NCBI GenBank assembly: GCA_964016885.1
Contig: OZ024754.1
Coordinates: 40,734,001 to 40,798,000, forward strand
Direction of reading: 5' to 3'
Length of the DNA stretch: 64,000 bases
DNA from: Eledone cirrhosa
Lineage: Eukaryota
Shown: positions 35,321-62,493 of the stretch, one piece after another
How the letters are laid out: every line of letters begins with the position of its first letter
Position numbering within the stretch: position 1 is the first letter of the stretch
The notes under the pieces: model-generated
What the model saw: only the letters and a program-made list of their open reading frames with translations
What the model was told of the DNA's origin: nothing
Database searches by the model: none
Made by a program: the position numbers and the translations under genes

Positions 35321-38094
35321 ATTATTGTTATCCACAACACATGGGTGGACGGCAGGCATCTATAACATTTAATTTGCAATATAAATTCAATTATTTTTAT
35401 ATTTCTGAAAACTGTTATGGAATAAAAATGCAAAATAAAAAGTTTGTTCAGGTTGACCAATGCCTTGTGAGTGAAAGTTGGGAGGTTGGAAACTGTAGAA
35501 GCCAAGAGTCATGTGTGTGTGTCTGTCTGTGTGTGTGTGTTTGTCTCTGTGTGTCTGTGTTTATGACACAAAACTTGGTGGTTTAACAAAAAAAAGATTA
35601 ATAATATGATCAGATTTGGAAAAATAAGTGTTGGGGTTAATATGATCAACTAAATTCTCTTTTTAAAGAGATGCTACAGCATGTCTAGTGACTGAAACCA
35701 GTAAAAGAAGCATTCATTTCTTGTGAAATTTTATTTTTTAAAATATTTTTTCTGTTTGCATTTATTACAATTTAAGATTATTTCTTCTAATATTGTGTGT
35801 GTTTCTGTTGTATACAGATGAGTGTGGGCATCATATTAACTGGAATTTTGTGAATGAAGTCCAGTTTTCCTTCAGCAGAAACCATCCTGATATTTATGAT
35901 TCAAAAAGAGATAAATTTAAGTTTTGCACAGAAGACTTTGAAGATGCTGTTGTAATGCCTTCGTATCGTAACATGGATCAGCCACAGCACTTTTATGTTG
36001 CTGAGATCAAATATGACCTCAATCCAAACAGTCCATTCCCTTCTCCTGAGCTTTATAGGACATTTAATGAGTATTACTCTAAAAAATATGGTCTCCATAT
36101 CACTAACTTGGAACAACCTTTATTGGATGTTGATCATACTTCTGCACGTCTTAATTTATTAACTCCACGTTACATGAATCAAAAAGGCATCGCTCTGCCG
36201 ACAAGCAGTGCCGAAACTAAGAAAGCCCGTCGAGAAAACTTACAACAGAAACAAATCTTGATTCCAGAATTGTGTGTTGTTCACATATTCCCTGCTTCTC
36301 TGTGGCGTAAAGCAGTGTGTCTTCCTGCCATTCTTTACAGAATAAACTATCTTCTGATTGCTGAAGAGATTCGTGTGAAAGTTGCCCAAGGAACCAAAAT
36401 AGGGGTTATTGAAATTCCAAAAGGCTTTCAATTTCCTAAACTTGATTTTGGTTTTGAAACCAACCCAGAAAAGATCATTGATAATAAACCTGAAAATGAG
36501 ATGAAGGGAACAAAAGCCAATACATGCTGCACTTCTTCATCAAAAACTCCTGCAAATGATAACAACAAGCTTGTGTTAAAAGATGCTAGAGAAAACAATG
36601 AACAAATTAAAAATGATTCTGGTTCCAGTTCACAAAAAGTTACGTTTGAAAATCAGAAAGATGTGAAAGAAATGCCAATAAAAGAACTATTGGTAAATAA
36701 TCTCGAGAGTAAGAAATTTAACTCTAGAAAACCTTTTATAAAAAGTAATTCAATGGAATCTCTTCATAAAAGCTGCAGTGTCAAAGAAGACTGTAATAGA
36801 CCATTGAAGGATTCTAATAGAATTCAAGAAGCACTTAATGCTGCAGCAGGAAAGAATAATTTTGAACGAAGAGAAGATTCAGTGAGTGCGCCATCTAACA
36901 GGAGTTTCCACCCGTCAGATATTAACACTTTCAAGTCTTCCTCTGTTAACAGCGAAGAAAAGAAATTTCAGCCTCAACAGTTTACAAATAAGAAAAAGCA
37001 TGAAAAAGAACCGCAACATTCGAATGAGAACATTAAAGAGGAGAACCTGAAAGAAGAGAAGAACAGTAAGTCTTTCCCAAAATCTAATTTTACTAACCTG
37101 CAGAATTCCAGTAGAATACCTAATGGCAGTAAAATGGATTTTAAGATAACTTTCGACATTGCAAAGGATTTAAATCCCAAAGACTCTCTTGATTCATTTA
37201 AAGAAACTACCGAGGTTCCCTCAAATGTTAAATTTCAGAATGATACTCTAAAGAAAGATTTGGAATCTCTCGATATTCGTCTTATTTGTGATAACAGAAG
37301 CTATCCTGAGGGAAACGCTTTCCATCAAATGGATGAGCAAATTAGGAAGGAAAAGAAAGCTTCTAAGACATTTGAACAATTAGATAACTTTTATCAGACA
37401 AAGCCACACAAGTCTGCAAGAATTGTAGAAATTTCAGATTCAGATGATCACCAAAAAGATAATATTGACAAACTTTCTAATGGCAACTGTGATAAAAGTG
37501 AATTGAAAAATATACCTCCTCCTACTTTTAGTCCAAAGAAAGATCCTGTGTGTAAAACTTCTGTGCAGAATTCTAATAACCAAGCAGATTATTCTCCAAT
37601 CATAGAAACATGTAAAGAATTAAAAAATAATTTCAATAATGCTCGTCTTCATTCTTCAGACACAAACATATGTCATGCTAATGTGGATTCTGTAAAAGAT
37701 GTTGAGGAAAAACTTTGCAGTAACTCAAATGAAAATGAGGAACATTTAAAACCTCCTACATCTGTCTGTGTGACTCCCAATAATAAAGATGAAACATGTA
37801 ATTTATATACAGCTAGCAAGTCAAACGATGTACTACATTCTAATTCCACTGCCACTACAGCATTTAATCCTCCTAGCCAGGAGAAATCTTTATCAACATC
37901 TTCAGACTCTGATTCTTCATCTAATTATGAATTAGCAGCCACCAGTCTCCATTCATCTCCAGAGCAAACTTTGAACCACTCTCATTCATCTAATCAGTCT
38001 ATATTTAATTGTACTCGGTCTCCTTCTTCACTGACAGATGTTGATGTTGATAATATTGATGATGTTGTTGTTGATGATGTTGATAATAATAATA

Positions 38095-38133
<39 letters not shown>

Positions 38134-40086
38134 TTGATAATGATGATGTTGATAATGATGTTGATAATGATAATGTTGTTGATAATGATGATGATGTTGA
38201 TAATGTTGATGATGATGATGATGATGATGATGTTGATAATGATGATGTTGTTGATAATGATGATGATGTTGTTGATAATGATGATGACGACGAAACATCT
38301 TCAGATTCTGAGGTCACTTCATGTCCAACCAAACAGACCACTTCTCATCTTCCGGACTCTAATGACCAACTCGTCGAGGAAGCTGAACGCGACATCTCTG
38401 AATCAGCACCTCTAAATGATGAAGACGAAAAAGATGTTGAAGCCGTTTCACCACCCATAACCCCACACAACAACAACAACAACAATGTCAATATCATTGA
38501 AAGCCCCATTGCTACAAAAGTACCCCTCTCTAACATAAACAAATGCACCAGTCTTATGTCGTCCTCTCATGATAATGCCGTCTGTGATAATAATATAAGA
38601 CACTCTTCAGACACCGATGTCTTTCAGAACATAACATCATTCAGTGGTCAGTCAGCTTCAGTAGATATGACAAAAATATCTGACTATGGCCAAATTGATG
38701 ATGCAACCAATGCAAATCTTGTTTACAGCTATGCTGAGACTCAGGAAAAACTTGCTCAGTCCTCAAACACTCCACCTCTTTTACTAGATACAGACATTGA
38801 ACTGAGTTGTTACATTGGTCCCAGCCCGTGCATTATTTTGCAAGCACTTACCATGTCAAATGCAAATGATTTTTTCAGTCTTGAGAGATTGGAAACCATT
38901 GGGGATTCCTTTCTTAAATATGCTATCACTGTTTACCTTTACTGTCAATATCCAGGTATCCACGAAGGAAAATTAAGCTATCTACGTAGTAAACAAGTTA
39001 GCAATTATAATTTATATCGTCTCGGTCGTAAGAAGGGTCTACCCGAGAGAATGGTCTCAGCTAAATTTGAACCTTACGAGAATTGGCTTCCACCTGGTTA
39101 TGTTATCAATGAAGATCGTAGGCGCGGCCCTGTACACAAAGTTCATATTTCTTCGAGCAGCAACAAACAAGACTCTTCTTCATCTGGGAATCAATGTGGG
39201 AATGAATCAGTTGATGAGGAAATTCTATCAACATCGTTGAATGATGAGAAGTTGTCATCAAATTTAAATAATGGCATGATGAACTTTATTGAAAACGAGA
39301 AACTTCCAAGCCATGTACGGAAAGCAAACTTCGAACAGTGGAAATTCAACCAAGAACTGGAAGAATTAAAACAATCACAAGAACAAGATGGTGTTAGTGG
39401 TTGTGGTAGTTCTACTAATGAAAAACCACTCGTTCCTTATAGCTTACAAACAATTCACAGCATCCCTGATAAAAGTGTAGCAGATTGTGTTGAAGCACTT
39501 ATTGGTTGCTATTTAACTTGTTGTGGGAAAAGAGCTGCTCTTCTTTTCATGTCTTGGCTTGGTTTAAAGGTTCTGCCACAAAAACATATCTTGGACCTAC
39601 AAGAACAATTTGATGAAGTATGTATATTAACACCTTTCATTTCGAAATGATTCTAAATTTTGGTATTAATAGGATTTGAATTTGTCTTTAAAAATATTTC
39701 ACTGTTTCAGAGAATTACATGGATTATTTTTAAAAATGTATATTGACCTTTCTTTTATAGAACTGAAGATGAGATTTTACATCCATTTAACTCTCCTTCA
39801 TTGTGTGAGTGTGAGTGTATATATATATATATATATATATATAACAAAGGAGTTGTGGTAAGGAACCAGAAGGACCATAACGCACCAGAGTACTCAATAT
39901 TTAGGGTAGTAGAGTGGGTAATAGGAAAATGTATGACCCCAACGGCAGAGCTGAAGCCGTTTCGATGGCTATTTCTGGACTCAGAGTCCAGAAATAGCCG
40001 TCGAAACGGCTTGAGCTCTGCCATCGGGGTCATACATTTTCCTATATATATATATATGCAACTATTCATCTATCTATATATATAGA

Positions 40087-40117
<31 letters not shown>

Positions 40118-40132
40118 GTGTGTGTCTACATA

Positions 40133-40199
<67 letters not shown>

Positions 40200-40289
40200 A
40201 TATGTATATATATATATATGCAACTATTCATCTATCTATATATATAGATGTGTGTGTGTGTGTATATATATGTGTGTGTGTCTACGTAC

Positions 40290-40336
<47 letters not shown>

Positions 40337-40337
40337 G

Positions 40338-40385
<48 letters not shown>

Positions 40386-43300
40386 ATGTGTGGGTGTGTG
40401 TATATGTATATATATATATGCAACTATCATCTATCTATATATATATAGAGAGATAGATATGTGTGTGTATATATATATGTGTGTGTATATATGTATGAGT
40501 ATGTATATTTATATTATTATCATCATCAAATCCAGCCGAGGTTAGCTTTACCTTTCTTCCTTATGGGGTCGATAAAATAAAGTACCAGTCATGCATTGGG
40601 GTCGATTTAATCGACTTTCCCCTCCCTAAAAATTGCTAGCCTTGTGCCTATAGTAAAAATCATCATTATTATACGTCCCTTTACGATCTGAGTTCAAATC
40701 CCGCCGAGGTTAACTTTGCCTTTCATCCTTTCACCATACGGGGTCGATAAAATAAAGTACCAGTAATGCACTGGGGTAATTGCTGGCCTTGTGCCTAAAG
40801 TAGAAACAATTATTATTATTATAATTAAAAGGATGGTGAATTGTTTTAAGTTGATTGTTTTTTGTTTTTGTTTGTTCAGGACATCACTGAACATCAGTTG
40901 GATGAGCTGGAAACTCCTCTGTCACCATTACTTACTCATACATCAAATGCCAAGGAAGTTCTTGAACGTTTACTTGATGGTTATGAAACATTTGAGAAAG
41001 AGATTGGCTACACATTCTCAGATCGATCGTATCTTCTACAGGCTTTCACTCATGCATCATATCATTACAATACAGTAACAGACTGCTATCAACGGTACGT
41101 TTTACAATCTTACCAATAAAAATCATACTTGAAATATAATCTGGAAAATGGTATATGTAATAAGACTAAACAATACAAAATGGATGGTAAGATGATGGCA
41201 ATGAAAAAGTTAGTTATCTGGTAATCTTTGGGGTTTTTTGTCCTATTTCGGGACTTAAAATTCCCTTTGTCAGATTATAAGGAACTCTCAGAGAAAAAAA
41301 AAAATGTTATGGTCTCTTCTTTTTAATTTCAGGAATATATTTGTGGATGTTCTCTAAAGATCAGTCTTCAGACTTAACTTTGCTTTTACCTGTGAAATTC
41401 TTCAAAAAAACATACAAAACAACACTATGACTGCATCACATAGAAAATAACACTATGACTGCATCACATAGAAAACAACACTATGACTGCATCACATAGA
41501 AAACAGCACTATGACTGCATCACATAGAAAACAACACTATGACTGCATCACATACAAAACAACACTATGACTGCATCACATAGAAAACAACACTATGACT
41601 GCATCACATACAAAACAACACTATGACTGCATCACATAGAAAACAACACTATGACTGCATCACATAGAAAACAGCACTATGACTGCATCACATACAAAAC
41701 AACACTATGACTGCATCACATAGAAAACAACACTATGACTGCATCATATAGAAAACAACACTATGACTGCATCACATAGAAAACAACACTATGACTGCAT
41801 CACATACAAAACAGCACTATGACTGCATCACATACAAAACAACACTATGACTGCATCACATACAAAACAACACTATGACTGCATCACATACAAAACAACA
41901 CTATGACTGCATCACATACAAAACAACACTATGATTGCATCACATACAAAACTGAAGTCTTTTCTCTAATACTGCAGATCTTTGCAATGATCTGTCCAGT
42001 AGTAAAGGCACTATATACATGTGAATTAACAAACTGTGTTTTAGATATTCTCTGCTAAATTATTACAGAATGTTAAGAATTAATAATAATGGAATAATGT
42101 TGAATAACCAGTTGTGATTTTTAATTTATAAATATTTATAATCATTTACCATTTTTACCTTTTGCGTGTTTCAGCCGACAGGCTGAGGCCATCCTGGGGC
42201 ACTGCTATTTAACTTATTTATTTAATCTTTTTTTTTTCAGTCTGGAATTTTTAGGGGATGCAATTTTGGATTATGTAATCACCCGTCATCTGTATGAAGA
42301 CTCTCAGCGTTATTCCCCTGGGGTTCTCACAGACCTCAGATCAGCTCTAGTCAACAATAATATTTTTGCAGCTTTAGCTGTCAAATGGAACTTCCATAAG
42401 TTTTTCAAAGCCATATCTCCAGAACTGTTCAACGTTATTGAGAGGTTTGTTGCTCGGCAAAAAGAGAAGGAAGATGAAATAGATTTTGATGAAGAAGTAA
42501 GTAATTTAATCAGATTTTCTCCTCTTAACGCTTTAGCATTTACATTACTCTATATTTACTATAATATTTTCATGGTAAAGGCTTTACCTCAGATAATTAT
42601 CTCACATAGCATTTACATTACTCTATATTTACTATAATATTTTCATGGTAACGGCTTTACCTCAGATAATTATCTCACATAGCATTTACATTACTCTATA
42701 TTTACTATAATATTTTCATGGTAACGGCTTTACCTCAGATAATTATCTCACATAGCATTTACATTACTCTATATTTACTATAATATTTTCATGGTAAAGG
42801 CTTTACCTCACATCATTATCTCACATAGCATTTACATTACTCTATATTTACTATAATATTTTCATGGTAAAGGCTTTACCTCACATCATTATCTCACATA
42901 GCATTTACATTACTCTATATTTACTATAATATTTTCATGGTAAAGGCTTTACCTCACATAATTATCTCACATAGCATTTACATTACTCTATATTTACTAT
43001 TATATTTTCATGGTAAAGGCTTTACCTGACATAATTATCTCGCATAACATTTACATTACTCTATATTTACTATTGTATTTTCATGATAAAGGCTTTACCT
43101 CACATAATATTGAATCTATGAAATTTTATGTTATTTATTTTGAGAACAATACCTCAACAATTATATATTTTTTTTAAACTTGAAAATTAGTTCCAAGATG
43201 AAGGAGAAGAAAGTCCTGACGAAGAAGTGGTTGAAATGGAAATCCCCAAAGCTCTTGGTGATATATTTGAGTCTGTTGCTGGTGCTATCTACCTTGACAG

Positions 43301-44836
43301 TAACAGGTCTTTAGATGTTGTATGGAAAGTTTACTATCGTATTATGAAGCCACAAATTGGTAAGAAATGGTTTTCTTTAAATATTGGAATTGAAATAGAA
43401 ATGTGATTATTGTTGTTTTAGTTTGGTTTTTAAGTTTTTTAATAATCAATAAAATTATTAACCATCTTGCCAACACCAACCCTGAGTACCTTTTTAAATC
43501 CATGTGTCTGACACACGTGGGCATGTGTACAAAATCAGAAAACAGTACAGCTCCCATGAATTTCAGAAACATTTTTCATGCTCAGAGTTGCTGAAGCATG
43601 GAACAAACTACCTGCATCAGTTGTTAGCTGCTGAGACACAGCATTCTTTAAAATCTCCATGCTTCCTGAAAATTTGCCAACACTACACTTGATATCCCCC
43701 CTCCATACACACACATATATCAAATTAAATTGATGTTGTTTTAATAATTGAATATATTTTGAATATTAAATTGATATTGTTTTAATAATCAAATATATTT
43801 ATTTTACTGGATTTTTTTTTTTCCTGTCATCATAGCTCAGTTTTTGTAGGGATAGGTTTCAAATATATTTGGGTTTTTTAATGAAAATATTCTGTATATT
43901 TTTTCGTTTTTTTTTTATTTTTCTCAGAAAATTATTTGAAAAAATATTCATTGATTTCTTTCATTTTTCTCAGAAAAATATTTGAAAAGTATTCCAAAAT
44001 CACCTGTACGAGAATTATTGGAACTGGAACCAGAAACTGCTAAATTTGAGTAAGTATTTTTAAGGATCATGTTTAATAACAGCCACAGAAATAAATGTAG
44101 CTTTGCTTGGTCAAAGTATATTTATTATTAAGAGTTGAGTAAAAGCTGTGAATGGCAGTATTGGTTGAGCATTGGTATAGAGTTACAGCTCTTTACGTTC
44201 TGGGTTCAAATCCCACCGAGGTTAGCTTTGCTTTTCATCCTTACGAGGTCGATAAAATAAAGTACCAGTAACTCACTGGAGTTGATTTCATTGACTTTCC
44301 CCTCACAGCAAATTGTTGGTCTTGTGCCAAAATCAGAAACCATTATTAAGAGTTAAATTGGTGTTAACATAATTAATATAAGGTGTTAACGAACTAGAGT
44401 TATGCAATCCACATTCCAATCAGTTAATTGTGATGCCAATAGCATAAAGCACTCTACACCACGTACACATCCAAGTTTGTTTTGGTAGTCCAAGGTGAAG
44501 AATACATACATACAGTACAGTAAATATTAGGGAAGGTCATATGAAGTTATGCCTTTGGTTAATATGAGATAATTGCATGATTATACGTCTTTATTTCAAG
44601 ACTCTACACTCCTTATTGTGAGATCTTTTGTTTATTTCAGGAAACCTGAGAGGACAGTTAATGGCAAAATCCGAGTTACTGTTAAAGTTGCTGGTAAAGG
44701 TGTTTATCACGGTGTTGGACGGAACTATCGCATTGCAAAGAGTGCTGCTGCAAAAAAAGCTTTGCGAATCCTTAAAACTATGCAATCACAAGGCCTCATT
44801 GCTCAAATATCAAATGAAAAGATGATGCAAGGATAA
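20536..44836 (+). CDS. DICER1: Endoribonuclease Dicer (Dicer-1 type); exons 20536-20631, 23051-23219, 25300-25553, 26707-27855, 28430-28531, 29319-29524, 30213-30354, 31533-31608, 32428-32615, 33750-33929, 34853-35066, 35818-39617, 40880-41094, 42241-42496, 43191-43359, 43974-44049, 44641-44836 (~2495 aa)
   Basis: Domains in order: helicase ([47 protein letters not shown]), DUF283 ([14 protein letters not shown]), platform ([21 protein letters not shown]), PAZ ([20 protein letters not shown]), RNase IIIa ([25 protein letters not shown]), RNase IIIb ([22 protein letters not shown]), dsRBD ([25 protein letters not shown]). Exon phases are all compatible. Confidence 0.97.
20745..22143. repeat. 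55/57-bp minisatellite (~25 copies) in the first coding intron of Dicer
   Basis: Unit tagagaaatagtatagtatttagtccacttggtggagtggttctatattactgtc(tg); no unique spacers. Confidence 0.95.
22763..22962. mobile_element. mariner-like MITE; a second copy at 61618-62277 carries a nested CR1 tail and two SINEs
   Basis: TA|TGAGGGTCGGCTGAAAAGTTCATA...TATGAACATTTCAGCCTACCCACG|TA termini; the internal sequence is shared by both copies. Confidence 0.7.
24015..24165 (-). ncRNA. Type I minimal hammerhead ribozyme motif (Penelope-like-element type) with long stem II
   Basis: Minus strand: CATTATTT-CTGAAGA-[~115-nt stem II hairpin]-GAAA-CGATCG-TT^AAATAATG. It has a perfect 8-bp stem I, a palindromic stem III and a GUU cleavage triplet, and sits in an insert flanked by (TA)n. 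The base of stem II is mismatched. Confidence 0.65.
26707..27855 (+). CDS. DICER1: Dicer exon 4 (helicase Hel1 end, Hel2i, Hel2)
   Basis: 1149-nt open exon: [46 protein letters not shown]. Confidence 0.95.
31131..31467. mobile_element. pogo/Tigger-like MITE
   Basis: TA|CAGTGGAAC...GTTCCACTG|TA termini. Confidence 0.65.
31668..32365. repeat. 62-bp minisatellite (~11 copies) derived from the terminus of a piggyBac-like MITE (family B)
   Basis: Unit ttaaccctttagttatcaaccctgccaaaaccatttctggttctatgatagaaaaccttgtc matches the reverse complement of the dispersed element ends at 5365-5431 and 34745-34789. Confidence 0.9.
33985..34290 (-). mobile_element. CR1-like LINE 3' fragment; others 43450-43720(+), 53450-53645(+), 55765-56105(-), 31030-31125(+)
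   Basis: Translates to [32 protein letters not shown], typical of CR1 ORF2 ends, followed by a conserved 3' UTR and (ATT)n tail. Confidence 0.75.
35818..39617 (+). CDS. DICER1: Dicer exon 12 (3.8 kb: PAZ, connector, large low-complexity insertion, RNase IIIa)
   Basis: Single open frame from the PAZ domain to [10 protein letters not shown], bounded by AG and GT. Confidence 0.95.
39842..40045. mobile_element. (TA)n-associated dispersed element ending in a ~60-bp-stem palindrome; relatives at 15447-15592, 15865-16020, 46995-47190, 47231-47385
   Basis: Shared body ggtaaggaaccag..gaccataacgcaccagagtactcaatatttagggtagtagagtgggtaatagg plus hairpin 39921-40045. Most copies are embedded in (TA)n. 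Confidence 0.7.
41410..41952. repeat. 28-bp minisatellite (~19 copies)
   Basis: Unit aaaacaacactatgactgcatcacata(g/c). Confidence 0.95.
42525..43160. repeat. 73-bp tandem amplification (~8 copies) of the end of a family-A piggyBac-like MITE, filling a Dicer intron
   Basis: Unit tagcatttacattactctatatttactataatattttcatggtaaaggctttacctcagataattatctcaca continues into the normal MITE body at 43100-43160. Confidence 0.9.
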
Positions 44837-45181
44837 GCTGGATAGATTGCTGATCAAGATGTATCTGTGATTCCATAATCAGCCATTACCGTCACGTGGC
44901 TGCAGATCATTGTTTCAACTACTTGGCACTGTGTGTGTGTGTGTACATGTATGGGTGTGTGGTGTGAACATGTATATGTGTCTGGGTGAGAAAGAGAGAG
45001 AGAAAAAGACAGTAACATTTTTTTTTGTGTGTACGTAATCGCGGTTTCATGTCAGGTATGGAACAATGAGTATGTATAATAATAATAATAATAATAATAA
45101 TAAGTTTTAATTTATGAATGAATTTTTACATTTTGTTTGTTAATGGCACAGATCATAGACTTCAAATTTGAAATAGAGAAT

Positions 45182-45672
45182 GGATAGCTCTCTAGGATAG
45201 CTCTTTTGGATAGCTCTCTAGGATAGCTCTCTTGGATAGCTCTCTAGGATAGCTCTCTAGGATAGCTCTCTAGGATAGCTCTCTAGGATAGCTCTCTTGG
45301 ATAGCTCTGTTGGATAGCTGTCTTGGATAGCTCTCATGGGTAGTTTTCTTGGATAGCTCTCTAGGATAGCTCTCTTGGATAGCTCTCTAGGATAGCTCTC
45401 TAGGATAGCTCTTTTGGATAGCTCTCTAGGATAGCTCTGTTGGATAGCTGTCTTGGATAGCTCTCATGGGTAGTTTTCTTGGATAGCTCTCTAGGATAGC
45501 TCTCTTGGATAGCTCTCTAGGATAGCTCTCTAGGATAGCTCTCTAGGATAGCTCTTTTGGATAGCTCTCTAGGATAGCTCTCTTGGATAGCTGTCTTGGA
45601 TAGCTCTCTAGGATAGCTCTGTTGGATAGCTGTCTTGGATAGCTCTCATGGGTAGTTTTCTTGGATAGCTGT
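45182..45672. repeat. 13-bp minisatellite (~37 copies) just after the Dicer stop codon
   Basis: Unit ggatagctctcta with a higher-order block (gatagctctcatgggtagttttctt) recurring three times. Confidence 0.95.
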
Positions 45673-46422
45673 CTTTAGCCTTTAAAACTATTATGGCATC
45701 GGTAATTTGTATTTGAAGTTTGTACAGAGAGTGTATATATGTGTGTGTATATGATACTAACTAAGAGAGCGTATATTTATGTGTGTATATGGTAGTAACT
45801 AAAAGAGTGTATATTTATGTGTGTATATGGTAGTAACTAAGAGAGTGTATATATGTGTGTATGGTAGTAACTAAGAGAGTATATATGGTAGTAAGTGAGT
45901 TTTTATATGTGCGTATATAGTAGTAAATAAGAGTGTATATATGTGTGTGTGTGTGTATATGGTATCAAATAACCGTGTATATGTGTGTGGTAGCAAATAA
46001 GAGTGTATATATGTGTGTATATGATAGTAAATAAGTGTGTATATGTGTGTGTCTATGGTAGTACATAAGAGAGGTTGTGAATGATGAGTAAAGCTATGTG
46101 AAAAGAAGTGTTTATATTGTGATTCAGAAATAATGTTGTGATTTGTGAAATGATCACAAAATTGTAAATGTCCTTACAGACTTAAATTCCAGAATCTAAT
46201 GAAATGATTCATCCAAAAATTGTTAAAATACATTTCATATCTTTATTCTGGTTGGGTTTTCATGCTCCACCAATCATTTGTTTTTCTATCTTGATTTTTT
46301 TTTTCCGACCACAAATTTTGAACTTCACTAACATTCAAACCCAACTCCTCATATCCATTGTTCACATATATTTATATTCACACCATCAACATTATTATGG
46401 TGTAAAATTGAGTAACCGGCTA

Positions 46423-46509
<87 letters not shown>

Positions 46510-46511
<2 letters not shown>

Positions 46512-46833
46512 ATGATATTAATAAATGGAAACTATATTTATAAAACCATATTTATTCTATTATATATATTTCAAGGGTACCAAAACTTTGGTACGCTCTC
46601 ATCAGATAAAATACAAAATTTCTTTTATAAATAGTGACATATCCAGGAATCAGACCTTATCATCCAAACGGAACTTGAACCGTTAAGGTCTGATTCCTGG
46701 ATATGTCACTATTTATAAAACAAATTTTGTATTTTATCTGATGAGAGCGTACCAAAGTTTTGGTACCCTTGAAATATATATAATAGAATAAATATGGTTT
46801 TATAGATATAGTTTCCATTTATTAATATCATTG
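46510..46833. repeat. Near-perfect ~150-bp inverted repeat (arms 46510-46659 and 46684-46833), Penelope-like inverted pLTR relic
   Basis: The arms are reverse complements with only a few mismatches around a ~24-nt loop. The insert is flanked by (TA)n. Confidence 0.92.
46730..46790 (+). ncRNA. Type I minimal hammerhead ribozyme motif (identical copy on the minus strand at 46553-46613)
   Basis: TATTTTAT-CTGATGA-GAGCGTACCAAA GT TTTGGTACCCTT-GAAA-TATATA-TA^ATAGAATA. Intact catalytic core, 8-bp stem I (one G-U), ~11-bp stem II and palindromic stem III; predicted cleavage after 46782 (AUA). Confidence 0.75.
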
Positions 46834-46919
46834 TTATTATACTCCAGAAAACCTGTCGAGTGCTTCGAATCTGTTATAAACATATTTGTTGAATTACCAA
46901 CAAATTAAATATCTCTTTG

Positions 46920-46988
<69 letters not shown>

Positions 46989-47381
46989 ATATAGGGAAAG
47001 AGTTAGAACCCCGATGGCTGAGCTCCGGCTGTTTCGACAACTAAATCAGAACTGTTCTGATCTAGCTGTTGAAACGGCCGGAGCTCTGCCGTCGGGGTCC
47101 TGTCTCTTTTCCTATTACCCACTCTACTACCCTAAGTATCAAGTACTCTGGTGCATTATGGTCCACCTGGTTCCTTACCACACTTTCCTTGTTTTATGTA
47201 TATATATATATTATATATATATATATATATAACGAAGGAAATGTGGTAAGGAACCAGGTGGACCATAACGCACCAAAGTACTCAATACTTAGGGTAGTAG
47301 AGTGGGTAATAGGAACGAGTAGGACCCCGACTTAGAATTAGCCGTCGAAATGGCTTGAGCTCAGCCGTCGGGGTCCTACTC

Positions 47382-47441
<60 letters not shown>

Positions 47442-47876
47442 AATTAGATATAGATATAGAATTGGCATTTACAGGACTAGAACTGTTTCATTCAAAAGAA
47501 ATCATCAGGAAAGCCCTGATGATTTCTTTCGAATGAAACAGTTCTAGTCCTGTATTTAAATTGATGTTTACACTCTACTAATGTATCGAGTACCTTACTT
47601 ACTGTGGTTACGCCTGATTGAACCCGAGACTCATATATATGTAATCTGTTCTTATAATCTCTCTCCCCCTATCTCTCTCTCTCCCCCTCACACTCCCCCT
47701 CTCTCTCTCAAACATATCTATTTATTCTTTGTTAAACAGTACAAGAAATCACGTTTAGCACTAATCTAATTTTATGTAAGACTAAATAATAATATAACAG
47801 CTACCAGATAAATTCCTCAGCAATCAGGGTATGCACTAAATAATTCTCTTCTGCATACCACCATTGCTCAATAACA

Positions 47877-48770
47877 TACCAGTTATATCCACAGGGTGGC
47901 TGTAACACCATCTTTTAGTGTTACTTACTCCAGAAACAACATCATGTGTGTGAAGTCGAGAAACATTCTCTCTGTATACCAGTTATATCCTTAGGGTGAC
48001 TGTAACAACAGCCTGTATGTGAAGTAGAGGAACATTCTCTCTGTATACCAGTTATATCCACAGGATGACTGTAACAACATCCTGTGTGTGAAGTAGAGGA
48101 ACATTCTCTCTGTATACCAGTTATATCCACAGGGTGACTGTAACAACATCCTGTGTGGGAAGTAGAGGAACATTCTCTCTGTATACCTGTTATATCCACA
48201 GGGTGACTGTAACAACATCCTGTGTGGGAAGTAGAGGAACATTCTCTCTGTATACCAGTTATATCCACAGGATGACTGTAACAACATCCTGTGTGTGAAG
48301 TAGAGGAACATTCTCTCTGTATACCAGTTATATCCACAGGGTGACTGTAACAACATCCTGTGTGGGAAGTAGAGGAACATTCTCTCTGTATACCTGTTAT
48401 ATCCACAGGGTGATGTAACAACATCCTGTGTGGGAAGTAGAGGAACATTCTCTCTGTATACCAGTTATATCCACAGGGTGACTGTAACAACATCCTGTGT
48501 GTGAAGTAGAGGAACATTCTCTCTGTATACCAGTTATATCCACAGGGTGACTGTAACAACATCCTGTGTGTGAAGTAGAGGAACATTCTCTCTGTATACC
48601 AGTTATATCCACAGGGTGACTGTAACAACATCCTGTGTGGGAAGTAGAGGAACATTCTCTCTGTATACCAGTTATATCCACAGGATGACTGTATCAACAT
48701 CCTGTGTGGGAAGTAGAGAAACATTCTCCCTGTATACCAGTTATATCCACAGGATGACTGTAACAACATC
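47877..48770. repeat. 69-bp minisatellite (~12 copies)
   Basis: Unit ataccagttatatccacagggtgactgtaacaacatcctgtgtgtgaagtagaggaacattctctctgt. Confidence 0.95.
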
Positions 48771-51700
48771 TCTATTGGCTGTGAAGTTTCATCTTGAGTA
48801 TTTTAACAAATTGTTCTTATATTTTCAAAATTTTATCGAAAAAAATCTAAAATGAATATTTAAATTAATCTCGTAGGAAGTTTTAAATAATTTAATTTTC
48901 ACATCTATATTATATTGTTTAGCTTTTAATTAACCCTTTCGCATTTAAACTGGCCATATCCAGCCAGAATACTCTCTCCTGTTTCTGTTTAAACAGGCTG
49001 TAACTGGCCACTCATATTGACGTTAAGGTATTGTTTTCAAAATAAATATCAAAATCTCATAGATTTGATATTACATTAGATAATTATATGAGATAAAGCC
49101 TTTACTGTGAAAATATAATGGTAAATTTAGAGTAATGTAAATGCTAAAGGGTTTTGAGATTGCAGATTTCATTAAAAACTTATAACTAATATCTGAAATA
49201 AAGATTGAAGTTATCAATGAAATGTGGTTTGTAAGAGGTTTGGCTACTGACTATTATATTAAATTGCAATAAATTATCATTTTAGTAATTCTTTGCTAAT
49301 TTAGTCAATTTGTTTTAGTTTTATATAGTCATGTCTATTTTTCAAAATCTCTATTTATATTCTTCTATTCATACACATATTCAGTCCACTGCTCTCATAA
49401 CCTCTTCTTTTATCATCTCATCTCCTTTTTATTTTCTTATATTGCTATTTGACCCTTTACTTCTGCCAGTTGTTTTTCTTCTAATTTCTCTCCTTCATAT
49501 ATGTTGTGTATGGCCCCTAAATTGGTTGAAATCTCTTGCTATAGCCATTATTATCTGTCTGCTGCTCAAACAAACCCCCCAAAAAAACAAACAAACCTGC
49601 TGTATCTATAATTTATATTTTTTTAAACCTAAAAATCTGTTGTAAACCAAGTACTTCCAAGTTTTGTGTGATATTGTTTTGTGTAATTTCACTTAAACCT
49701 CTTATTTCATCCATAATATCTCAATCTAAGAAGCTATCTTTTAAAAAAAAAAATGGCTGCTACAGATTGTTTTCTCCACCTCCCCTGTCAGCCGATAATC
49801 ACTACTCATTATCTATTTGTCTGCAGATTTATAAAATGTTAAACGATGTTGTCTTGGTAAATTCTGTGATGTTTCTGGATGTTGTACCAGAGTTTCTAAT
49901 AATAACCATTTTCATTTTATCTGTGGTACCATTTGTTGGAGACCTTCAAATAAGAGGTCATTTTTTTTCTGTTCAGAATTTTATCTCTAAAAATCTTCCA
50001 ACAGAGAGAAAAAAGTAAATAAAATATAAAAGTTATTTCTTCTTTGCTTTATTATTATTATTATTATTATTATTATTTGTAATGCTTTTCTGGCAGATGT
50101 TATACCAACACTAAACCAAAAGAGCAAGCCATAACCAATGGCCAAAGATACTTTGAGTCATTCCTTCTCCTTCAACTTTCCAATGCTCTCCTTAAAATTC
50201 TTGCTGTTCCCAGCAAGGCTGTTTTCTGCTTATTTGAAGGTTTTTGTTTTATTTGCTGAAGAAATATTCCCAATATTTTCACTCTAACTCTTTTATTTGC
50301 TTTCTCAACTCTGTAATTCTTTAAATATATATATTTTTTTAATTAAAAGGCTATTATTGCTGTTACTGTTGTTGTTGGTATGACCTAACTGCTTCCACTG
50401 CTGACAACAAAAGGTTTCTCTCTACGTAAAAAAGGAAGGCTGTGTGACACCTGTGTGCAGTGTGCGATCCTGCATGGTAGTGAAACATGGTCAGTGAATG
50501 TAGAAGACATACATAGACTGGAGAGAAATGAAGCAACCATGTTTCGTTGGATGTGCAATGTAAATATAAGAGAAAGGCAGAGTTTGACGAGCTGAGAGGG
50601 AAGCTGGGTTTAGGGGGAATCCAAGATGGTGTGCAGGAGAGAAGACTGTGTTAGTATGGACATGTGATGTGCACGGATAATGACCAATCGGTGAAGAAAT
50701 GCCAGGGAATCACAGTAGAGGATGATCAAGAAAGACCTGGGCAGAGGTGAGAGCTGACCTCGAATTACTAAGACTGGCAGAGGAGATGATGAAGGAACAT
50801 AACAAATAGAGAGATGCTGTGCTGAGAGGGACCCATCCAACCTATGCAAGTGTGGAAAAACAGATGTAAAAACAATGATGCTTCACAGCATACTTACGTC
50901 CCTTTATGTTCTGAGTTCAAATCCCGCCAAGGTTAGCTTTGCCTTTCATCCTTACGGGGTCGATAAAATAAAGTACCAGTAATACACTGGGATCGATTTA
51001 ATCGACTTTCCCCTCCCTCAAATTTTTGGCCTTGTGCTTAAATCAGAAATCATTCTCTTACAAACTGTATCTATGAAATATTTCATTTATCTCCCTAGAA
51101 ATCATGTCTGTTAGTTTTTTTTACATATTATCTTCTGCTTTTTTTTATCAATTGATTTATTTTTGTGAACTTTAGAGTTGTCAGTGAATGGGAGGAAAAA
51201 AAAATCATTTTGGTTTAAAGTAGTTTAACTAAATTCCCAATAATAATTAAAGCTCCTAAAAAAATAGGACTTCAATTTTTTTATTTTTAACCATTTCATT
51301 AGCACATTTCTAACAAAAGGCATCACTTTGATGGGTTTCGGCCAGTATTGGCCCAGACTATGTCTAACTTAATAGCACCACATAATCTATGATTTTCAAA
51401 TAATTTTGAAAATAATTGAGAATTTGGAAGGATTTAGTAAATATATCTTTCTCGTTATTAAGCTGGTGTTTAAGGGCGGTGGCTTGGTAGAATCAGTAGA
51501 GCATCGGACAATATGCTTTGCGGCATAGGGTTATGACATTTTAGGATCCGAGTTCAAATTACACTGAGGTTAGCTTTGGTTTCATCCTTACAGCGTTGAT
51601 AAAATGAAGTACCAGTAATACACTGGGGTTGATTTAATTGACTATTCCCTGCCCCAAAATTGCTGGCCTTGTGTCTAAATCAGAAACCATTATTAAGTTG

Positions 51701-51970
51701 TTGTTAAGGGCGGTGGATTGGCAGTATCGGTAGAGGATCGGACGCTATGCTTTGACGTATAGAGTTACGGCCCTTGCCATTCTGAGTTCAAATCCCGCCG
51801 AGGTTAACTTTGCCTTTCATCCTTACGGGGTCGATAAAATAAAGTACCAGTAATGTACTGGGTAATTGCTGGCCTTGTGCCAAACGTAGAAACAATTATT
51901 AAGTTGTTGTCCAGCCACTTCCACTTCTTCCAAGGTAGGATTTTCTGTTAGTACATCATTTGTAGGTCAA

Positions 51971-52155
51971 CTAGGAACCTAATAAACTCCCCACTGTCAT
52001 AGGAGTTTCTGGAATAAAAGCTCGAGGAGAATTTTTGCTACATCTTTTATGTTTCATGCATGGGAGGCTGGATTGATGACTCCACCATGGACCATGAATG
52101 AGTTTGGTCTTGATGATTTCAAAGAGATCTAGATCGCCATCTTTATCAGGTAACT
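51971..52155 (-). mobile_element. Helitron Rep-helicase coding fragment
   Basis: ELPDKDGDLDLFEIIKTKLIHGPW....PCMKHKRCSKNSPRAFIPET resembles the Helitron Rep motif E.PD...L...V...M.HGPC....CM....C.K.FP..F..ET. Confidence 0.7.
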
Positions 52156-53678
52156 CCACTGAAATGCTCTGAGGCCATAGTATCTAGAATAAAGACAGGA
52201 TGGAAGAAGTTTAGGGAGCTGCTTCCTCTGTTGACAATGAAGGGTTTCTCCCTACGAATGAAAGGTTGGTTGTATGATGACTTGGTAGTGAGATCCGGGC
52301 AGCAACTGTGGGGGATATGCGAAGACCGGAAAGAAATGAAGCAAGCATCCTCTGATGGATGTGTTGAGAATAAAACTGTATAAAAGGAGTAAACTGTAGT
52401 GTGCAGGAGAGAAGACTGTGTTGGTATGGCCATGTGATGCGCATGGAAGATGACTACTGGGTGAAGTGCCAAGAAATCCCAGTGGGAGGAAGAAGACCAA
52501 GAAATATATGGGTGGAGGTGGTGAGAGCTGACCTCAGACTGCTGAAACTCACAGAGAAGATGACAAAGGACCGTGACTAATGGAGAGATGCTGTGCTGAA
52601 GAGGACGCGTCCCACCCTTCATTAATAAACGTTGATTGCCACCTAAACTCTGTTTATATTTTAATTCTGAAGGAACTTATCCACTTGTGTTGATATAAGT
52701 GATTTTATGACTTTCCTGTAAGCATTTTGTCTTTATATATGTTATTATAAACGTGAATATATTCTGTATATGAAAAAAAAAAAAAAAAAGCTGAAATGAA
52801 ATGTCATGCGAAATATACAAAAAAAACCTGCAAAGAAAAAAAAACAGAAAAGATAACCAAGTCTATTACCTCCCTTGAATTTTCTGTAATGATGTCATAA
52901 GAGAATTGTTTTGTTTTTTTAACCAAATTCTACGAAATTCTTCATTTCATAAAATCATTCAAATTTATTAAAATCCTGAGTTATTTACAGATTAGTTTAT
53001 GATTCACACACACACACACATACACACGTACACACACACATACACACACAAATGTTATTTTGAAACAGAAATATAAGCTTTCTGTGTTCACTTTCCTCCA
53101 TCAAAAAAGTAACTGATATATTTTTATTGTCTTTTTTTAAATTCTTTTATTGGTTTTAATCAATAGACTGTGGCCATGCTGTGGCCATGTTGTGGCACCA
53201 CTTTAAAGGGATTTAATCAACTATATCAACCACAGTATTTATTTTGTCAAGTCTGGTACTTATACACATACATACATGCATACTCTCATATACATACATT
53301 CATACACACATACACTTACACACACATACATACATACATACATTCATATACATACATTCATACACACATTCATACACATACATACATACACACATACACT
53401 CACACATAGGTACATACACACACACATTCATACATACATACACACATGCTTCCTGAAATTCACCAACACTACACCTGATATCCCCCCCCCTCCCGTCCAT
53501 ACACCTGCACACATGTATTTCTTGACTCATACACTGTTCATTTACCTGACATTTGTACATTATTCTATATACTATACATGCACCTTTGATGGGTCATAGT
53601 GCACCTGAACACTGTACACAATAATTTCATTATTATTATTATTATACATACATTCATACACATACATACACACACATA

Positions 53679-54575
53679 CGAGGTGTGTCAGAAAAGTTCC
53701 AGGACGGATGTCACGAAAGATTTATTTCAAACCCAAACTTCACTCTGAGAGTTTTCTCCTTCAAAGTAATCCCCCTGGAGTATGTAACTGTAATCTTAGC
53801 TCTCTGCAGCGATCAAACTTTTTTCTTCATAATTTTATATACATGTCCTCTGTTTCAGGTCGTCAAGCAATGAGCATAGAGCAACGAACAAACTTGAAAA
53901 CTCCGTCAGAAGCACTGGGATTGCTGCAGCAAGTGTATGGAGATGAGACGATGTCACGTTCACGTGTTTTTGAGTGGTGCAAGAGGTTTAAAGAAGGACG
54001 CGAGGACGTGGAAGATGACCCCAGGAGCGGAAGGCCCTCAACAACCAGGACTGAGGTCAACGTTGAGTGCATCAGGCAGATGGTGCGTAGCGATCGTAGG
54101 CTGACTGTTCGACTGATGGCAAATGAGCTGGGCATGAATCGGGACAGCGTCTGGAAGATTCTCACTGAAGATTTGGACATGCGGAAAGTCTGCGCGAAGA
54201 TGGTGCCAAAACTGCTGAACGATGACCAGAAGGGTCGACGCATGCAAGTGTGTCAGGACATCCTCTTGAGCGTCTTGAAACCGAACCAGACTTGCTAGGG
54301 ACAGTCATCACCAGTGATGAGTCATGGATCTTCGAGTACAACCCGGAGGGACCCGTTTTGAAGATGTGGACAACATCAAAAAGGCCGTGACGACGGAACT
54401 GCAGATGATCCCGGAAGAATCCTTCCAGGAGTGCATGCAAGCGTGACAGAAAAGGATGGCAAAGTGCATTAGACTCCAGGGGGATTACTTTGAAGGAGAA
54501 AACTCTTAGTGCGAAGTTTGGGTTTGAAATAAATCTTTTGTGACATCAGTCCTGGAACTTTTCTGACCCACCTCG
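53679..54575 (+). mobile_element. Internally deleted mariner (Tc1/mariner) DNA transposon
   Basis: TA target-site duplication and ~100-bp TIRs (CGAGGTGTGTCAGAAAAGTTCCAGGAC.. / ..GTCCTGGAACTTTTCTGACCCACCTCG) enclose a transposase remnant. Confidence 0.93.
53870..54500 (+). pseudogene. mariner transposase pseudogene (HTH region intact; catalytic DDD domain frameshifted and largely deleted)
   Basis: VYGDETMSRSRVFEWCKRFKEGREDVEDDPRSGRP, DRRLTVR, KVCAKMVPKLL. A frameshift precedes VITSDESWIFEY, and the sequence then jumps to the C-terminal GDYFEG. Confidence 0.88.
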
Positions 54576-56201
54576 TACATACATACTCATACATACATAC
54601 ACACATATATACACACACATACATATATACCTACTTACATACATACATACCTACTTACATACATACATACATACACACATATGAGAGGCTTCTAATTTCT
54701 TTCTACCAAATTTCACTCACATGGCATTAGTCAACCTAGAACAAATCTTACACAAAGGTGAATGTTTTCCAAACAATAATAATGATAACTAGCAGAATGA
54801 CCTGGCATTTCTCAGGATTCTAAACATAGATTGGCATGTTTATCCCTCCTTTCTGAAACAGTACAGAGAAGTACGGAATACCTCGGCCTTGCGACCATCA
54901 AATAGCAGATTCCACTGACGATTCGTTTACCTGCCTTGTTCTTTTTCTTGCCGCTTTCGCAGTATTTCGGCCAATGGAATATCTCTTCCTTCGAGGCATG
55001 ACCTAAAATCAGGACGAAGTACACTAAGACTAACTGGTAGAGTAAGGAGTAAACTCGTCAGTGATGCATGTAATTTCCGAACCGTTGACTATGTTATTGC
55101 TGGCCTTGTACCAAAAGTAGTGGGACTTTTGGGGTGGCATATCGGCAGTAACAATGACGATAAGCCGTCTGAGCTTTCGTGAAATAAATACGTTTGTTTA
55201 TATTTTGTTTTTATGTATGCAAAAATATCTGGACATGAATATATAATTATATATATATATATATGTATATATTAAAATAACAGATTAAAGTTTAAGCAAA
55301 GAATCACTGCTTTCACACTTAACGGGATCTTCTGAAACTAAAAAAATCAATCTGTGAACGCAGGAGTAAATATTTCGAAAAACGTTGCAACCAAAGGAAA
55401 GCAGGAAGACGATGCTTTGGTTCATGAATATGTTCCCTGGCAATGAACGGAAAATAGTGAAGATGATACGTCAGCAATGAGAACAATATTTGTCATAATG
55501 TCGTAATGCAGACATACAGACATATATTATAAGAGCGCAACGTTATAGCTTTGTATCTATCTAAAAAGACAAACTAAGAAAGACACAGAGATCACTAACC
55601 GGCGCCTAATGCGGTCCCTACGGCATTGAAAATTCGAAATATTTTTCACTCAAAACACTCACACGACCATAAGTATTACATGTGTAAAGTTTGAAAAAAA
55701 TCGGTTGGGTGGTTCTCGAGTTTTAGGGAGTCAGACAGACATTCTCTGTTTTAGATATATAGATGATGAAATTATTGTGTACAGCGCTCAGGTGCACTAC
55801 AACTCATCAAAGGTGCATGTATAGTACATAGAATAATGTACAAATGTCAGGAAAGTGAACAGTATATGAGTCATGATATACATGTGTGCGTGTGTATGGA
55901 GGGGGGGATATCAGGATGCAGTGTCTCGACAGCTAAGAACTGATGCAGGTAGTTTGTTCCATGCTTCAGCAACTCTGAGTGTGAAAAGATGTTTCTGAAA
56001 GTGATGGGAGCTGTGCTGTTTTCTGACTTTGTAGACATGCCCACGTGTGTTAGACACATGGAATTCAAAAAGGTGCTCAGGGTTGTTGGCAAGATGGTTA
56101 ATAATTTTAGCCTACCTCGTTTTATTGACAGATGTGATGTGAAGGCTTTAATACATCAACTACACTAACAGAAAGTAAATCTCAAAGTATTACTGTTTTC
56201 T

Positions 56202-60300: not shown

Positions 60301-62493
60301 GGAGAAGGTATTTCCCTAGAAGATGCATACTATTATTATTGGTGGATTGGCAGTATCAGTAGAGGGTCGGACGCCATGCTTTGACGTATAGAGTTACGGC
60401 CCTTGCCATTCTGAGTTCAAATCCCGTCGGGGTTAACTTTGCCTTTCATTCTTACGGGGTCGATAAAATAAAGTACCAGTAATGCACTGGGGTTAATTGC
60501 TGGCCTTGTGCCTAAAGTAGAAACAATTATTAACAGACTTTTCTTTCTTTCTGTGAAGATAAATGGTGAAACTGGGCAAAAATTTAGTTATGAAAGCCTT
60601 CAAAAAGATTCCATAAAGGTCTCCAACTCCTTTTACCGTCTTGGACTGCGGAAAGGAGACGTTGTTTGTTTGTATGGATCCAACATTCCTGAAATGCTTC
60701 ATATTCTTTGTGGAGTCACTGCTATAGGGGGAGTCATAACTCCAGCCATGGCACAGATGTCAGTAGGTAAGAACTATTATCTATTCAAACCTTTTTGGAG
60801 GGTTTTTCTTAAACACATTCATTTCTCTGGGTTTTTTTCATTGTCTGTCAACTTTGAAATCATAAAATCAGGCGCGTCATGCTCCATTCTTCTTCTTCTT
60901 CTTCTTCTTCTTCTTTTTCTTCTTTTTCTTCTTTTTCTTTTTCTTTTTCTTCTTTTTCTTTTTCTTTTTCTTCTTCTTCTTTTTCTTTTTCTTTTTCTTT
61001 TTCTTCTTTTTCTTTTTCCTCTTCTTTTGCTTCTTTTTCTTTTTCTTCTTTTTCTTTTTCTTTTTCTTCTTTTTCTTTTTCTTCTTTTTCTTCTTTTTCA
61101 TTTTCTTCTTTTTCTTTTCTTTTTCTTTTTCCTCTTCTTTTGCTTCTTTTTCTTCTTTTTCTTTTTCTTCTTTTTCTTTTTCTTCTTTTTCTTTTTCTTC
61201 TTTTTCCTCTTCTTTTTCTTCTTTTTCTTCGTCTTCTTCTTCTTCTTCTCCTTCTCTTCCTCCTCCTCCTCCGCCCCACTTATTCCTGAGAGGGTTGTGT
61301 TAGGGGACAGAGTCCTCAAACACTCCTCTTCCAGAAGGTCCTGTCAGAAGGAACCCTCTCCAACTAATCCAGCTCTAGATTCCCCAAGCGAGACCAGCCG
61401 AGCTCAGGGATGTTATTCAGCCATCTTTCTCAGGGTCTACCCCTTTCTTCTACAATGTTTCTTCTACTTTCCCCTGCTGGCATGGGTTGGATGAGATAAT
61501 TTGAGACAATGTTTTACAACCAGACACCTTTCCTGATACCAACCGTTTTAGTCGCTTCTTTTGACATTCAGGAATATGGTGTACCTGTCCTAAAACCCAT
61601 GATATACATGATATCTACGAGGGTCATCTGAAAAGTTCATAGGCTGACCAAGATACTCTCATGGAATGACTAAATAAGGTTTATTTTTCAACATAGTCCC
61701 TGGAAAGAAACAATGCAGTTATACATAATTCTATGTACTATACATGCACCTTTGACAAGTGGTAGTGCACCTGAGCACTGTACACAATAATTTCATTATT
61801 GGTAGAGAGTCGGACGCCATGCTTTCCAGCATAGTTACGTCCCTTTTACGGTCTGAGTTCAAATCCCGTTGAGGTTAACTTTGCCTTTCATCCTTACGGG
61901 GTCGATAAAATAAAGTACCAGTAATACACTGGGATAATTGCTGGCTTTGTGCCAAAATTAGAAACAATTATTATATTAATAAGAAGGGCAGTGGATTGGC
62001 AGTATCAGTAGAGTCGGACGCCATGCTTTGCAGCACAGAGTTGTGGTCCTTTACAGTCTGAGTTCAAATCCTGCCAAGCTAAACTTTGCCTTTCATCCTT
62101 ACGGGGTCGATAAAATAAAGTACCAGTAAGGTACTGGGTAATTGCTGGCCTTGTGCCAAAAGTAGAAACAATTATTATATTAATAAGAAAATTTGAAAAT
62201 AATACATGCAAGATTTCACAGCTCTAGCATCACTCCTTCATAATCATCCAGTCTATGACCTTTTCAGCCTGCCCTCATATTTTACTTTGCCATTATAGAT
62301 ATTTTTTTGTTTATGCTTCGTTAGAAAGAACAATTATGTAAAAATTAAGCTCTGCTAATTATTGTGAATGTTTATTTCATTTGTAGGAGAACTCAGCTCT
62401 CAGTTACGAGACTCTCAGTCTAAGTTTATTGTAACCACCCCAGAATGTGTTATTAGGGCTAAAGAAGCTGCTAAAAGAACCAACAGTATTCAG
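57353..62493 (+). CDS. 4-coumarate-CoA ligase-like / luciferase-like acyl-CoA synthetase (ANL superfamily), 5' part only; exons 57353-57517, 60559-60766, 62387-62493; continues beyond the window
   Basis: Spliced: ..[62 protein letters not shown].[17 protein letters not shown]. This is the typical N-terminus of 4CL/luciferase-like AMP-binding enzymes, and the phases are compatible. Confidence 0.85.
58231..58550 (+). repeat. (TTTGGG/TCTGGG)n hexamer tract, ~50 units
   Basis: Directly visible; intronic. Confidence 0.95.
59434..59927. repeat. 48-bp minisatellite (~10 copies)
   Basis: Unit cacccagtccacactgtaaagtggacgtgtaaaagacacagcaaagag. Confidence 0.95.
60886..61272. repeat. ~390-bp polypyrimidine (CTT/CTTTTT)n tract
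   Basis: Almost pure C/T on the plus strand; intronic. Confidence 0.95.

Follow-up and report, generated by a model that had tools for sequence, protein, structure and literature searches.

A hairpin of Penelope-like retroelement ends in the probable 3′ UTR of Eledone cirrhosa Dicer, most likely a neutral passenger

A near-perfect hairpin with a hammerhead ribozyme core in each arm lies downstream of the Dicer gene of Eledone cirrhosa, which raises the question of how it arose and whether it acts on the Dicer mRNA, for example as a self-cleavage switch. The window analyzed was a stretch of 64,000 nt (assembly GCA_964016885.1, contig OZ024754.1, positions 40,734,001 to 40,798,000), and all coordinates are positions in it. 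The reading that we favor, with a probability of approximately 0.86, is that a Penelope-like element (PLE) with Hydra-clade motifs gave rise to the hairpin by a short insertion, most likely neutral, which sits in what is probably the 3′ UTR of Dicer with its ribozyme predicted not to fold.

The inverted repeat consisted of two arms of 154 nt each (46506-46659 and 46684-46837), 98% complementary (three differences) and separated by a 24-nt spacer. A near-perfect inverted repeat after the Dicer stop had been reported by the first-pass annotation, and this description was borne out, the element lying 1.67 kb downstream of the stop codon. The folding energy of the hairpin was -235 kcal/mol (z = -34.8), and none of 100 shuffled sequences folded equally well. 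The extent first given (46510..46833) was too short for the element, which occupies 46506-46922 within (TA)n and consists of a pLTR end in sense orientation, extended by a tail of 85 nt, and an inverted copy that has no tail. The 24-nt loop is the unpaired start of the sense pLTR end. Identity over arm plus tail was 92-96%. AATAAA hexamers are found in both arms (46520 and 46787), where the duplex would hide them. The parts of the element and its target site are as follows.

46428..46509, no strand: left part of the target site, a (CT)n(AT)n microsatellite (from the sequence).
46506..46659, minus: inverted 5′-truncated pLTR copy without a tail (3′ end type A), corresponding to reference positions 25-182; it would be antisense in a Dicer transcript.
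46660..46837, plus: sense pLTR end, starting at the frequent 5′ end of the family (reference position 3 at 46662).
46838..46922, plus: 85-nt tail (3′ end type B), equivalent to the sequence from pLTR to ORF start in longer copies (L094 and L096).
46923..46982, no strand: right part of the target site, an (AT)n microsatellite (from the sequence).

The arm belongs to an abundant family. Used as a genome query, it returned 1,569 candidates, of which the 40 that were scored gave 55 matches, most of them 90-100% identical; a 22-nt core pattern had 2,622 exact genome matches, as compared with 0 for the reversed control. The family is young, because its nearest copies are 98% identical. The Penelope-like origin proposed earlier was supported by longer copies, in which the same pLTR is linked to RT/GIY-YIG frames. 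In locus L031, the arm pLTR is joined to a frame with RT plus GIY-YIG at the C-terminus, and RT and GIY-YIG-type motifs, read by eye against PMC8557442, adjoin the arm pLTR in the frames of L031 and L094-L098. Loci L094 and L096 showed the order inverted pLTR, pLTR plus tail, ORF, pLTR, with the tail sitting between pLTR and ORF start. Pfam searches of two element frames gave no RT or GIY-YIG match, and no intact master ORF was present among 11 long loci, all of which were broken or truncated.

The closest known elements were those of the Hydra clade, which are C-terminal EN+ PLEs (Craig et al. 2021, PMC8557442; for example, Hydra-1_Obim and Penelope-13_HM) marked by RW, DKT, and CxCX5C motifs, hammerheads, and (TA)n targets. 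The family shared with them the order of RT followed by GIY-YIG, RW near the N-terminus, DKT (in L096), the CxCX5C linker (intact in the L094 and L097 frames, with the first Cys changed in L031), a sense-strand hammerhead close to the 3′ end (the core is on the ORF strand, ~100 nt before the 3′ end), and (TA)n targets. The Hydra clade lacks the CCHH motif in its endonuclease, and the endonuclease domain here lined up by eye with the Hydra block of the supplement of that paper, which lists for Penelope-13_HM an inverted 5′-truncated copy and a hammerhead that is the same on either strand. In contrast to the clade as described there, the third residue of the N-terminal RWK was variant (RWR in L096 and RWH in L094), the unit was ~3.9 kb with a 1.3-kb 3′ UTR rather than “generally under 3 kb,” and the tail was 85 nt rather than 30-40 nt; the window copy also differed from these elements in having no ORF sequence. 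The hammerhead sequence was different from that of Hydra-1_Obim, an octopus member, and the two are separate families. Judging by motifs compared by eye, the family would be an EN+ PLE with Hydra-clade motifs. The inverted arrangement is already known for PLEs; opposite-strand PLE hammerhead pairs 100-700 bp apart have been published (PMC4209133). In a literature search with sparse coverage of subscription journals, no title dealt with this PLE family or with a Dicer UTR hairpin that carries hammerheads.

Other assignments were rejected. Naiad did not fit, the endonuclease here being C-terminal. Non-LTR retrozymes (10.64898/2026.07.22.740005) are likewise short non-coding hammerhead-bearing derivatives of PLE pLTRs, but they form direct tandem hammerhead arrays, whereas the window copy is head to head and the sampled loci are solo or inverted. 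Among the longer loci, a 365-aa frame in L099 (2338-1244, minus strand) matched the family at 86% in its RT half and at only 40% in its endonuclease half, and it may be an in-frame chimera of two related families. Further Hydra-like ORF fragments, from more distant families, were observed in L032 (8837-10000 and 1460-537).

The anatomy of short copies was determined in 26 position-ordered and 27 top-hit loci (7 duplicate loci were dropped, and the top-hit set includes the window locus), with arm ends measured against a natural copy in L031. Two fixed 3′ end sites 85 nt apart accounted for 75 of 82 arms, and TA runs abutted 70 of the 82 arm ends. A head-to-head partner was found at 13 of the 26 position-ordered loci and 16 of the 27 top-hit loci (29/53 together), which, along with L094 and L096, upholds the earlier statement that the pLTRs of such elements are often inverted. 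The 24 pairs that could be classified (of 29) comprised 23 with one tailed and one tail-less arm, one with two tails, and none with both arms tail-less; this pairing deviated strongly from a 50% expectation (23/24, P = 3e-6). The window copy fits the asymmetry, its left arm having no tail and its right arm having a tail to 46922. The 5′ starts of 25 of the 82 arms were within -3..+5 of one position (reference ~0, window 46660). This frequent 5′ end adjoins a TCACT motif, just after a pyrimidine tract, and TCACT resembles the initiator-like motif of a rotifer pLTR (PMC3846280). The position may correspond to a transcription start with an internal promoter, or to a stop of reverse transcription.

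These counts bear on two other readings of the palindrome, an artefact of assembly and a DNA transposon of MITE type. A near-perfect palindrome lying between microsatellites would be expected to arouse such a suspicion, but the two arms differ at 3 sites, a tail is present on one arm alone, an asymmetry seen again in 23/24 pairs, arm length varies by locus, and longer copies are connected to an RT frame. We consider either version extremely improbable, and a MITE was rejected on the asymmetric and variable arms and the tie of the family to the RT frame; any target-site duplication is made unreadable by (TA)n.

For the favored PLE insertion, we propose the following origin. The GIY-YIG endonuclease of the element would nick both strands of a TA run, and from each nick reverse transcription would be primed at either of two internal sites that lie 85 nt from each other. 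The resulting cDNAs would both end early, near the probable 5′ end of the RNA, and the two would then, we infer, be joined head to head. Anolis Poseidon in vitro (Frangieh et al. 2024, PMC11167929) offers a parallel: the anole protein nicks AT-rich DNA on both strands, extends both, and starts reverse transcription at two internal sites, which define an optional tail. Poseidon belongs to another clade, and no fixed combination of the two start sites within inverted pairs, as seen here (23/24), is described for it in the first half of that paper. The tailed/tail-less pairing agrees with coupled priming from the two nicked strands. Inverted copies have alternatively been proposed to arise by self-priming on an antisense template (PMC3846280), which is less simple to reconcile with the fixed tail asymmetry than two primers are and may still apply.

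Each arm contained a type I hammerhead core, one per strand, as had been read in the first pass; the reading is supported by the sequence and by predicted pairing. The two cores are as follows.

46730..46790, plus: type I minimal hammerhead (sequence and predicted pairing).
46569..46605, minus (read 46605 to 46569): hammerhead core of the inverted arm, from CUGAUGA to GAAA (sequence).

In the sense hammerhead, stem I is formed by 46730-46737 and 46783-46790 (8 bp), followed by CUGAUGA at 46738-46744, stem II at 46745-46770 with one C-C mismatch, GAAA at 46771-46774, the palindromic UAUAUA at 46775-46780, and UA. Reading of the core yielded a predicted cut after A46782, the same site as that named earlier. 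Stem III would consist of A-U pairs alone, closing a loop of 2-4 nt, and its palindrome would permit a dimer. Similar minimal metazoan PLE hammerheads (Cervera and de la Pena 2014, PMC4209133) also have a type I core, a long stem II, and a tiny palindromic stem III suited to dimers; here, in contrast, stem II closes with G-U or A-U rather than with the usual G10.1-C11.1, and the 8-bp stem I lies inside a longer predicted helix. In a solo arm (window 46712-46810), stem I was predicted to extend past an internal loop into another helix of 12 bp. The Rfam hammerhead models, of which one was suggested as a check in the first pass, gave no match to the hairpin: neither 40000-55000 (scanned with E up to 1) nor 46700-46830 (with E up to 10) contained a hammerhead family, and below-threshold matches to miRNA-like hairpins were all that appeared.

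Stem positions were paired in 89-100% of ~120 family arms, apart from one C-C mismatch. The two most common stem variants among 122 family arms (26/119 and 22/120) preserved the pair, and no two-sided stem changes were seen in this set. The hammerhead is probably under selection within the element, because these stem variants keep the pair. The low variation at core positions (1.3% vs. 4.5%) was not counted as evidence, many of the arms having been picked by a core-containing pattern.

Whether the hairpin is part of the Dicer mRNA depends on where that mRNA ends. The gene upstream of the hairpin is the only locus with a Dicer_dsRBD domain in the genome search, and its best named relatives, in a search limited to proteins of 710-2261 residues, are mollusc Dicers. 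A Dicer open frame of ~3.9 kb with PAZ and RNase IIIa matches was observed at 35742-39617 of the window.

44641..44836, plus: last coding exon of Dicer (dsRBD; Pfam Dicer_dsRBD, E = 2e-22), preceded by an AG acceptor and ending in a TAA stop at 44834-44836.
44837..50023, plus: probable long 3′ UTR of Dicer, its extent taken from run X4 contigs, with an AATAAA at 50018 as the candidate end.

Four sequencing runs were compared over 39000-51000; none had a recorded kind, and their RNA or DNA nature was judged from the contigs. Run X4 looks like RNA because one contig splices 39617 to 40880 (a GT-AG intron, with the Dicer frame kept) and another begins at the last Dicer acceptor, and runs X1-X3 look like DNA because their contigs lie inside introns. 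The unstranded X4 contigs (44641-45012, 45783-46417, 47534-48047, 48741-49047, and 49124-50002) flank the element on both sides, and the flanking contigs end in microsatellites. The depths of run contigs were not taken as copy number or expression, and missing X4 coverage of introns or beyond 50002 was given no weight. X4 also has contigs bearing letters of other family copies; therefore, other family copies are transcribed too. Tandem arrays of 13-bp and 69-bp units were observed in the probable 3′ UTR (window 45180-45680 and 47900-48780).

The claim that the hairpin lies in the Dicer 3′ UTR thus gained some support, from X4 contigs on both sides and from the lack of an earlier AATAAA or ATTAAA, and it stopped short of a direct link, no contig listed for the four runs bridging the element. 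The other possibility is that the element is outside the main Dicer mRNA, whose poly(A) site would be either upstream or set by the AATAAA at position 46520, and that the downstream contigs represent read-through or another transcript. The lack of a bridging contig, the unstranded contigs, and the AATAAA at the very start of the left arm speak for this; against it, no AATAAA or ATTAAA is present between the Dicer stop and 46520, one AATAAA is present at 50018, and X4 has four unique-sequence contigs spanning 45783 to 50002. On balance, the hairpin probably lies inside a long Dicer 3′ UTR, as judged from the unstranded contigs of one run, and a position outside the main mRNA is unlikely. The latter is compatible with the PLE insertion and would remove only the link to the UTR.

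The first-pass annotation proposed a self-referential switch: the hairpin would be diced as dsRNA or, once edited or unwound, its sense hammerhead would cut the Dicer mRNA at 46782. One component of this claim, that the upstream arm masks the sense ribozyme, was reproduced in the folding computation. In a Dicer transcript, pairing of the arms over 154 bp would conceal the sense ribozyme; a forced hammerhead fold costs 85 kcal/mol with the left arm present, whereas in a solo arm it exceeds the ensemble by only 3.3 kcal/mol. In favor of the switch are the intact core, this small solo-arm cost, and the pair kept by both of the most frequent stem variants (122 arms). Against it, simulated editing failed to free the ribozyme (random editing, 12 runs at each level, in which adenosines of the core and stems were deliberately left unedited). 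With inosine treated as G, a barrier of 57-84 kcal/mol remained; with inosine unpairable, the barrier was 23-35 kcal/mol (minimum to mean) at 50% editing and 19-24 kcal/mol at 75%, and it was therefore still at least 19 kcal/mol after 75% editing. Editing would also hit the catalytic adenosines, the chance of all five core adenosines escaping 50% editing being 3%. Stem III requires a same-sense partner, and the window scan found no such partner of this family in cis, with a single sense copy downstream of the stop. Minimal PLE hammerheads reportedly showed no activity as monomers and only weak activity as dimers (PMC4209133); in another study (PMC11167929), the PLE hammerhead needed the protein of the element, and RNA-seq showed no ends at its cut site. 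The dicing component of the claim likewise lacks support: molluscs, O. bimaculoides included, are described in PMC12479628 as having one miRNA-type Dicer, few siRNA-like reads, and no siRNA-type dicing, with the proviso that rare cell types may differ in siRNA-like reads. The switch is therefore rated as having almost no chance of being correct.

The fallback offered in the same annotation, a neutral recent relic of a transposable element, is the best reading. Two more fold-back families lie within 800 nt of the hairpin, both far more abundant than the arm family. The second (window 47455-47640) has CUGAUGA...GAAA cores on both strands, 7 nt apart, and 29,236 exact 24-nt matches in the genome.

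47508-47486, minus, and 47516-47538, plus: cores of the second family (CUGAUGA...GAAA).

The third has nested copies behind Dicer (46990-47380) and one copy in a Dicer intron (39843-40045); the CUGANGA core was absent from these copies, and a 19-nt pattern taken from other copies had 62,608 exact matches. By-eye counts of pairs at the first 100 places listed for each of the three families on one contig (C1) came to 10, 17, and 21, which extrapolates to ~18,000 two-armed hairpins, or one per 160 kb. Under even placement, the chance of a fold-back in a given 5.2 kb would be ~3% (extrapolated). Many genes would carry a fold-back, and therefore the place beside Dicer needs no selection. The hairpin is most likely neutral, a judgment drawn from youth and abundance. 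Other features of the window were a 1,032-aa open frame with no Pfam match (1605-4703), a fibrinogen C-terminal exon (6098-6655), a mariner-type transposase remnant (53609-54298), and an AMP-binding enzyme exon (60472-61494).

Even an unselected duplex of 154 bp can influence an mRNA when it lies in a UTR. Inverted Alu pairs are ADAR substrates, and in 3′ UTRs they affect the mRNAs that carry them. The present duplex is likewise a likely ADAR substrate, as would be many similar hairpins in other transcripts. Palindromic ADAR substrates such as Harbinger in Xenopus (PMC5625713) are comparable in being self-folding repeats in host transcripts that need no neighboring copy, with the difference that the window family enters the comparison as a predicted duplex. 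With the origin unchanged, the duplex could thus act on the Dicer mRNA without the ribozyme, through ADAR hyper-editing, nuclear retention, or RNase III cutting. A near-perfect 154-bp duplex with two more fold-backs within 800 nt in the probable UTR is consistent with such an effect, as are the very high hyper-editing of octopus and its many loci able to form long duplexes (PMC5625713). Against it stand the youth of the copy, the many genes that would have such hairpins, and the single miRNA-type Dicer with few siRNA-like reads of molluscs (PMC12479628). In addition, no A>G editing could be assigned to the window copy: the sole A>G row in the element (46579) was shared with the DNA-like runs. 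We regard an effect of this kind as quite unlikely. Slightly less likely still is co-option, in which editing of the 3′ UTR duplex by ADAR or its cutting by RNase III would tune Dicer output; hammerhead cleavage is unneeded for this and is the least likely route. If co-option were true, the hairpin would represent a transposon-made feedback loop on the miRNA pathway.

For Dicer itself, the neutral PLE insertion means that the hairpin probably does not matter. For PLEs, the origin of inverted repeats has been named as an open question (PMC8557442), and the tailed/tail-less pairing (23/24) provides a genomic test of how they are made. For octopuses, the ~18,000 fold-backs (extrapolated) are a candidate source of hyper-editing, which was described without repeat annotation in the accessible part of PMC5625713; that the three families are a main source of it is a tentative suggestion, possible and yet more doubtful than not.
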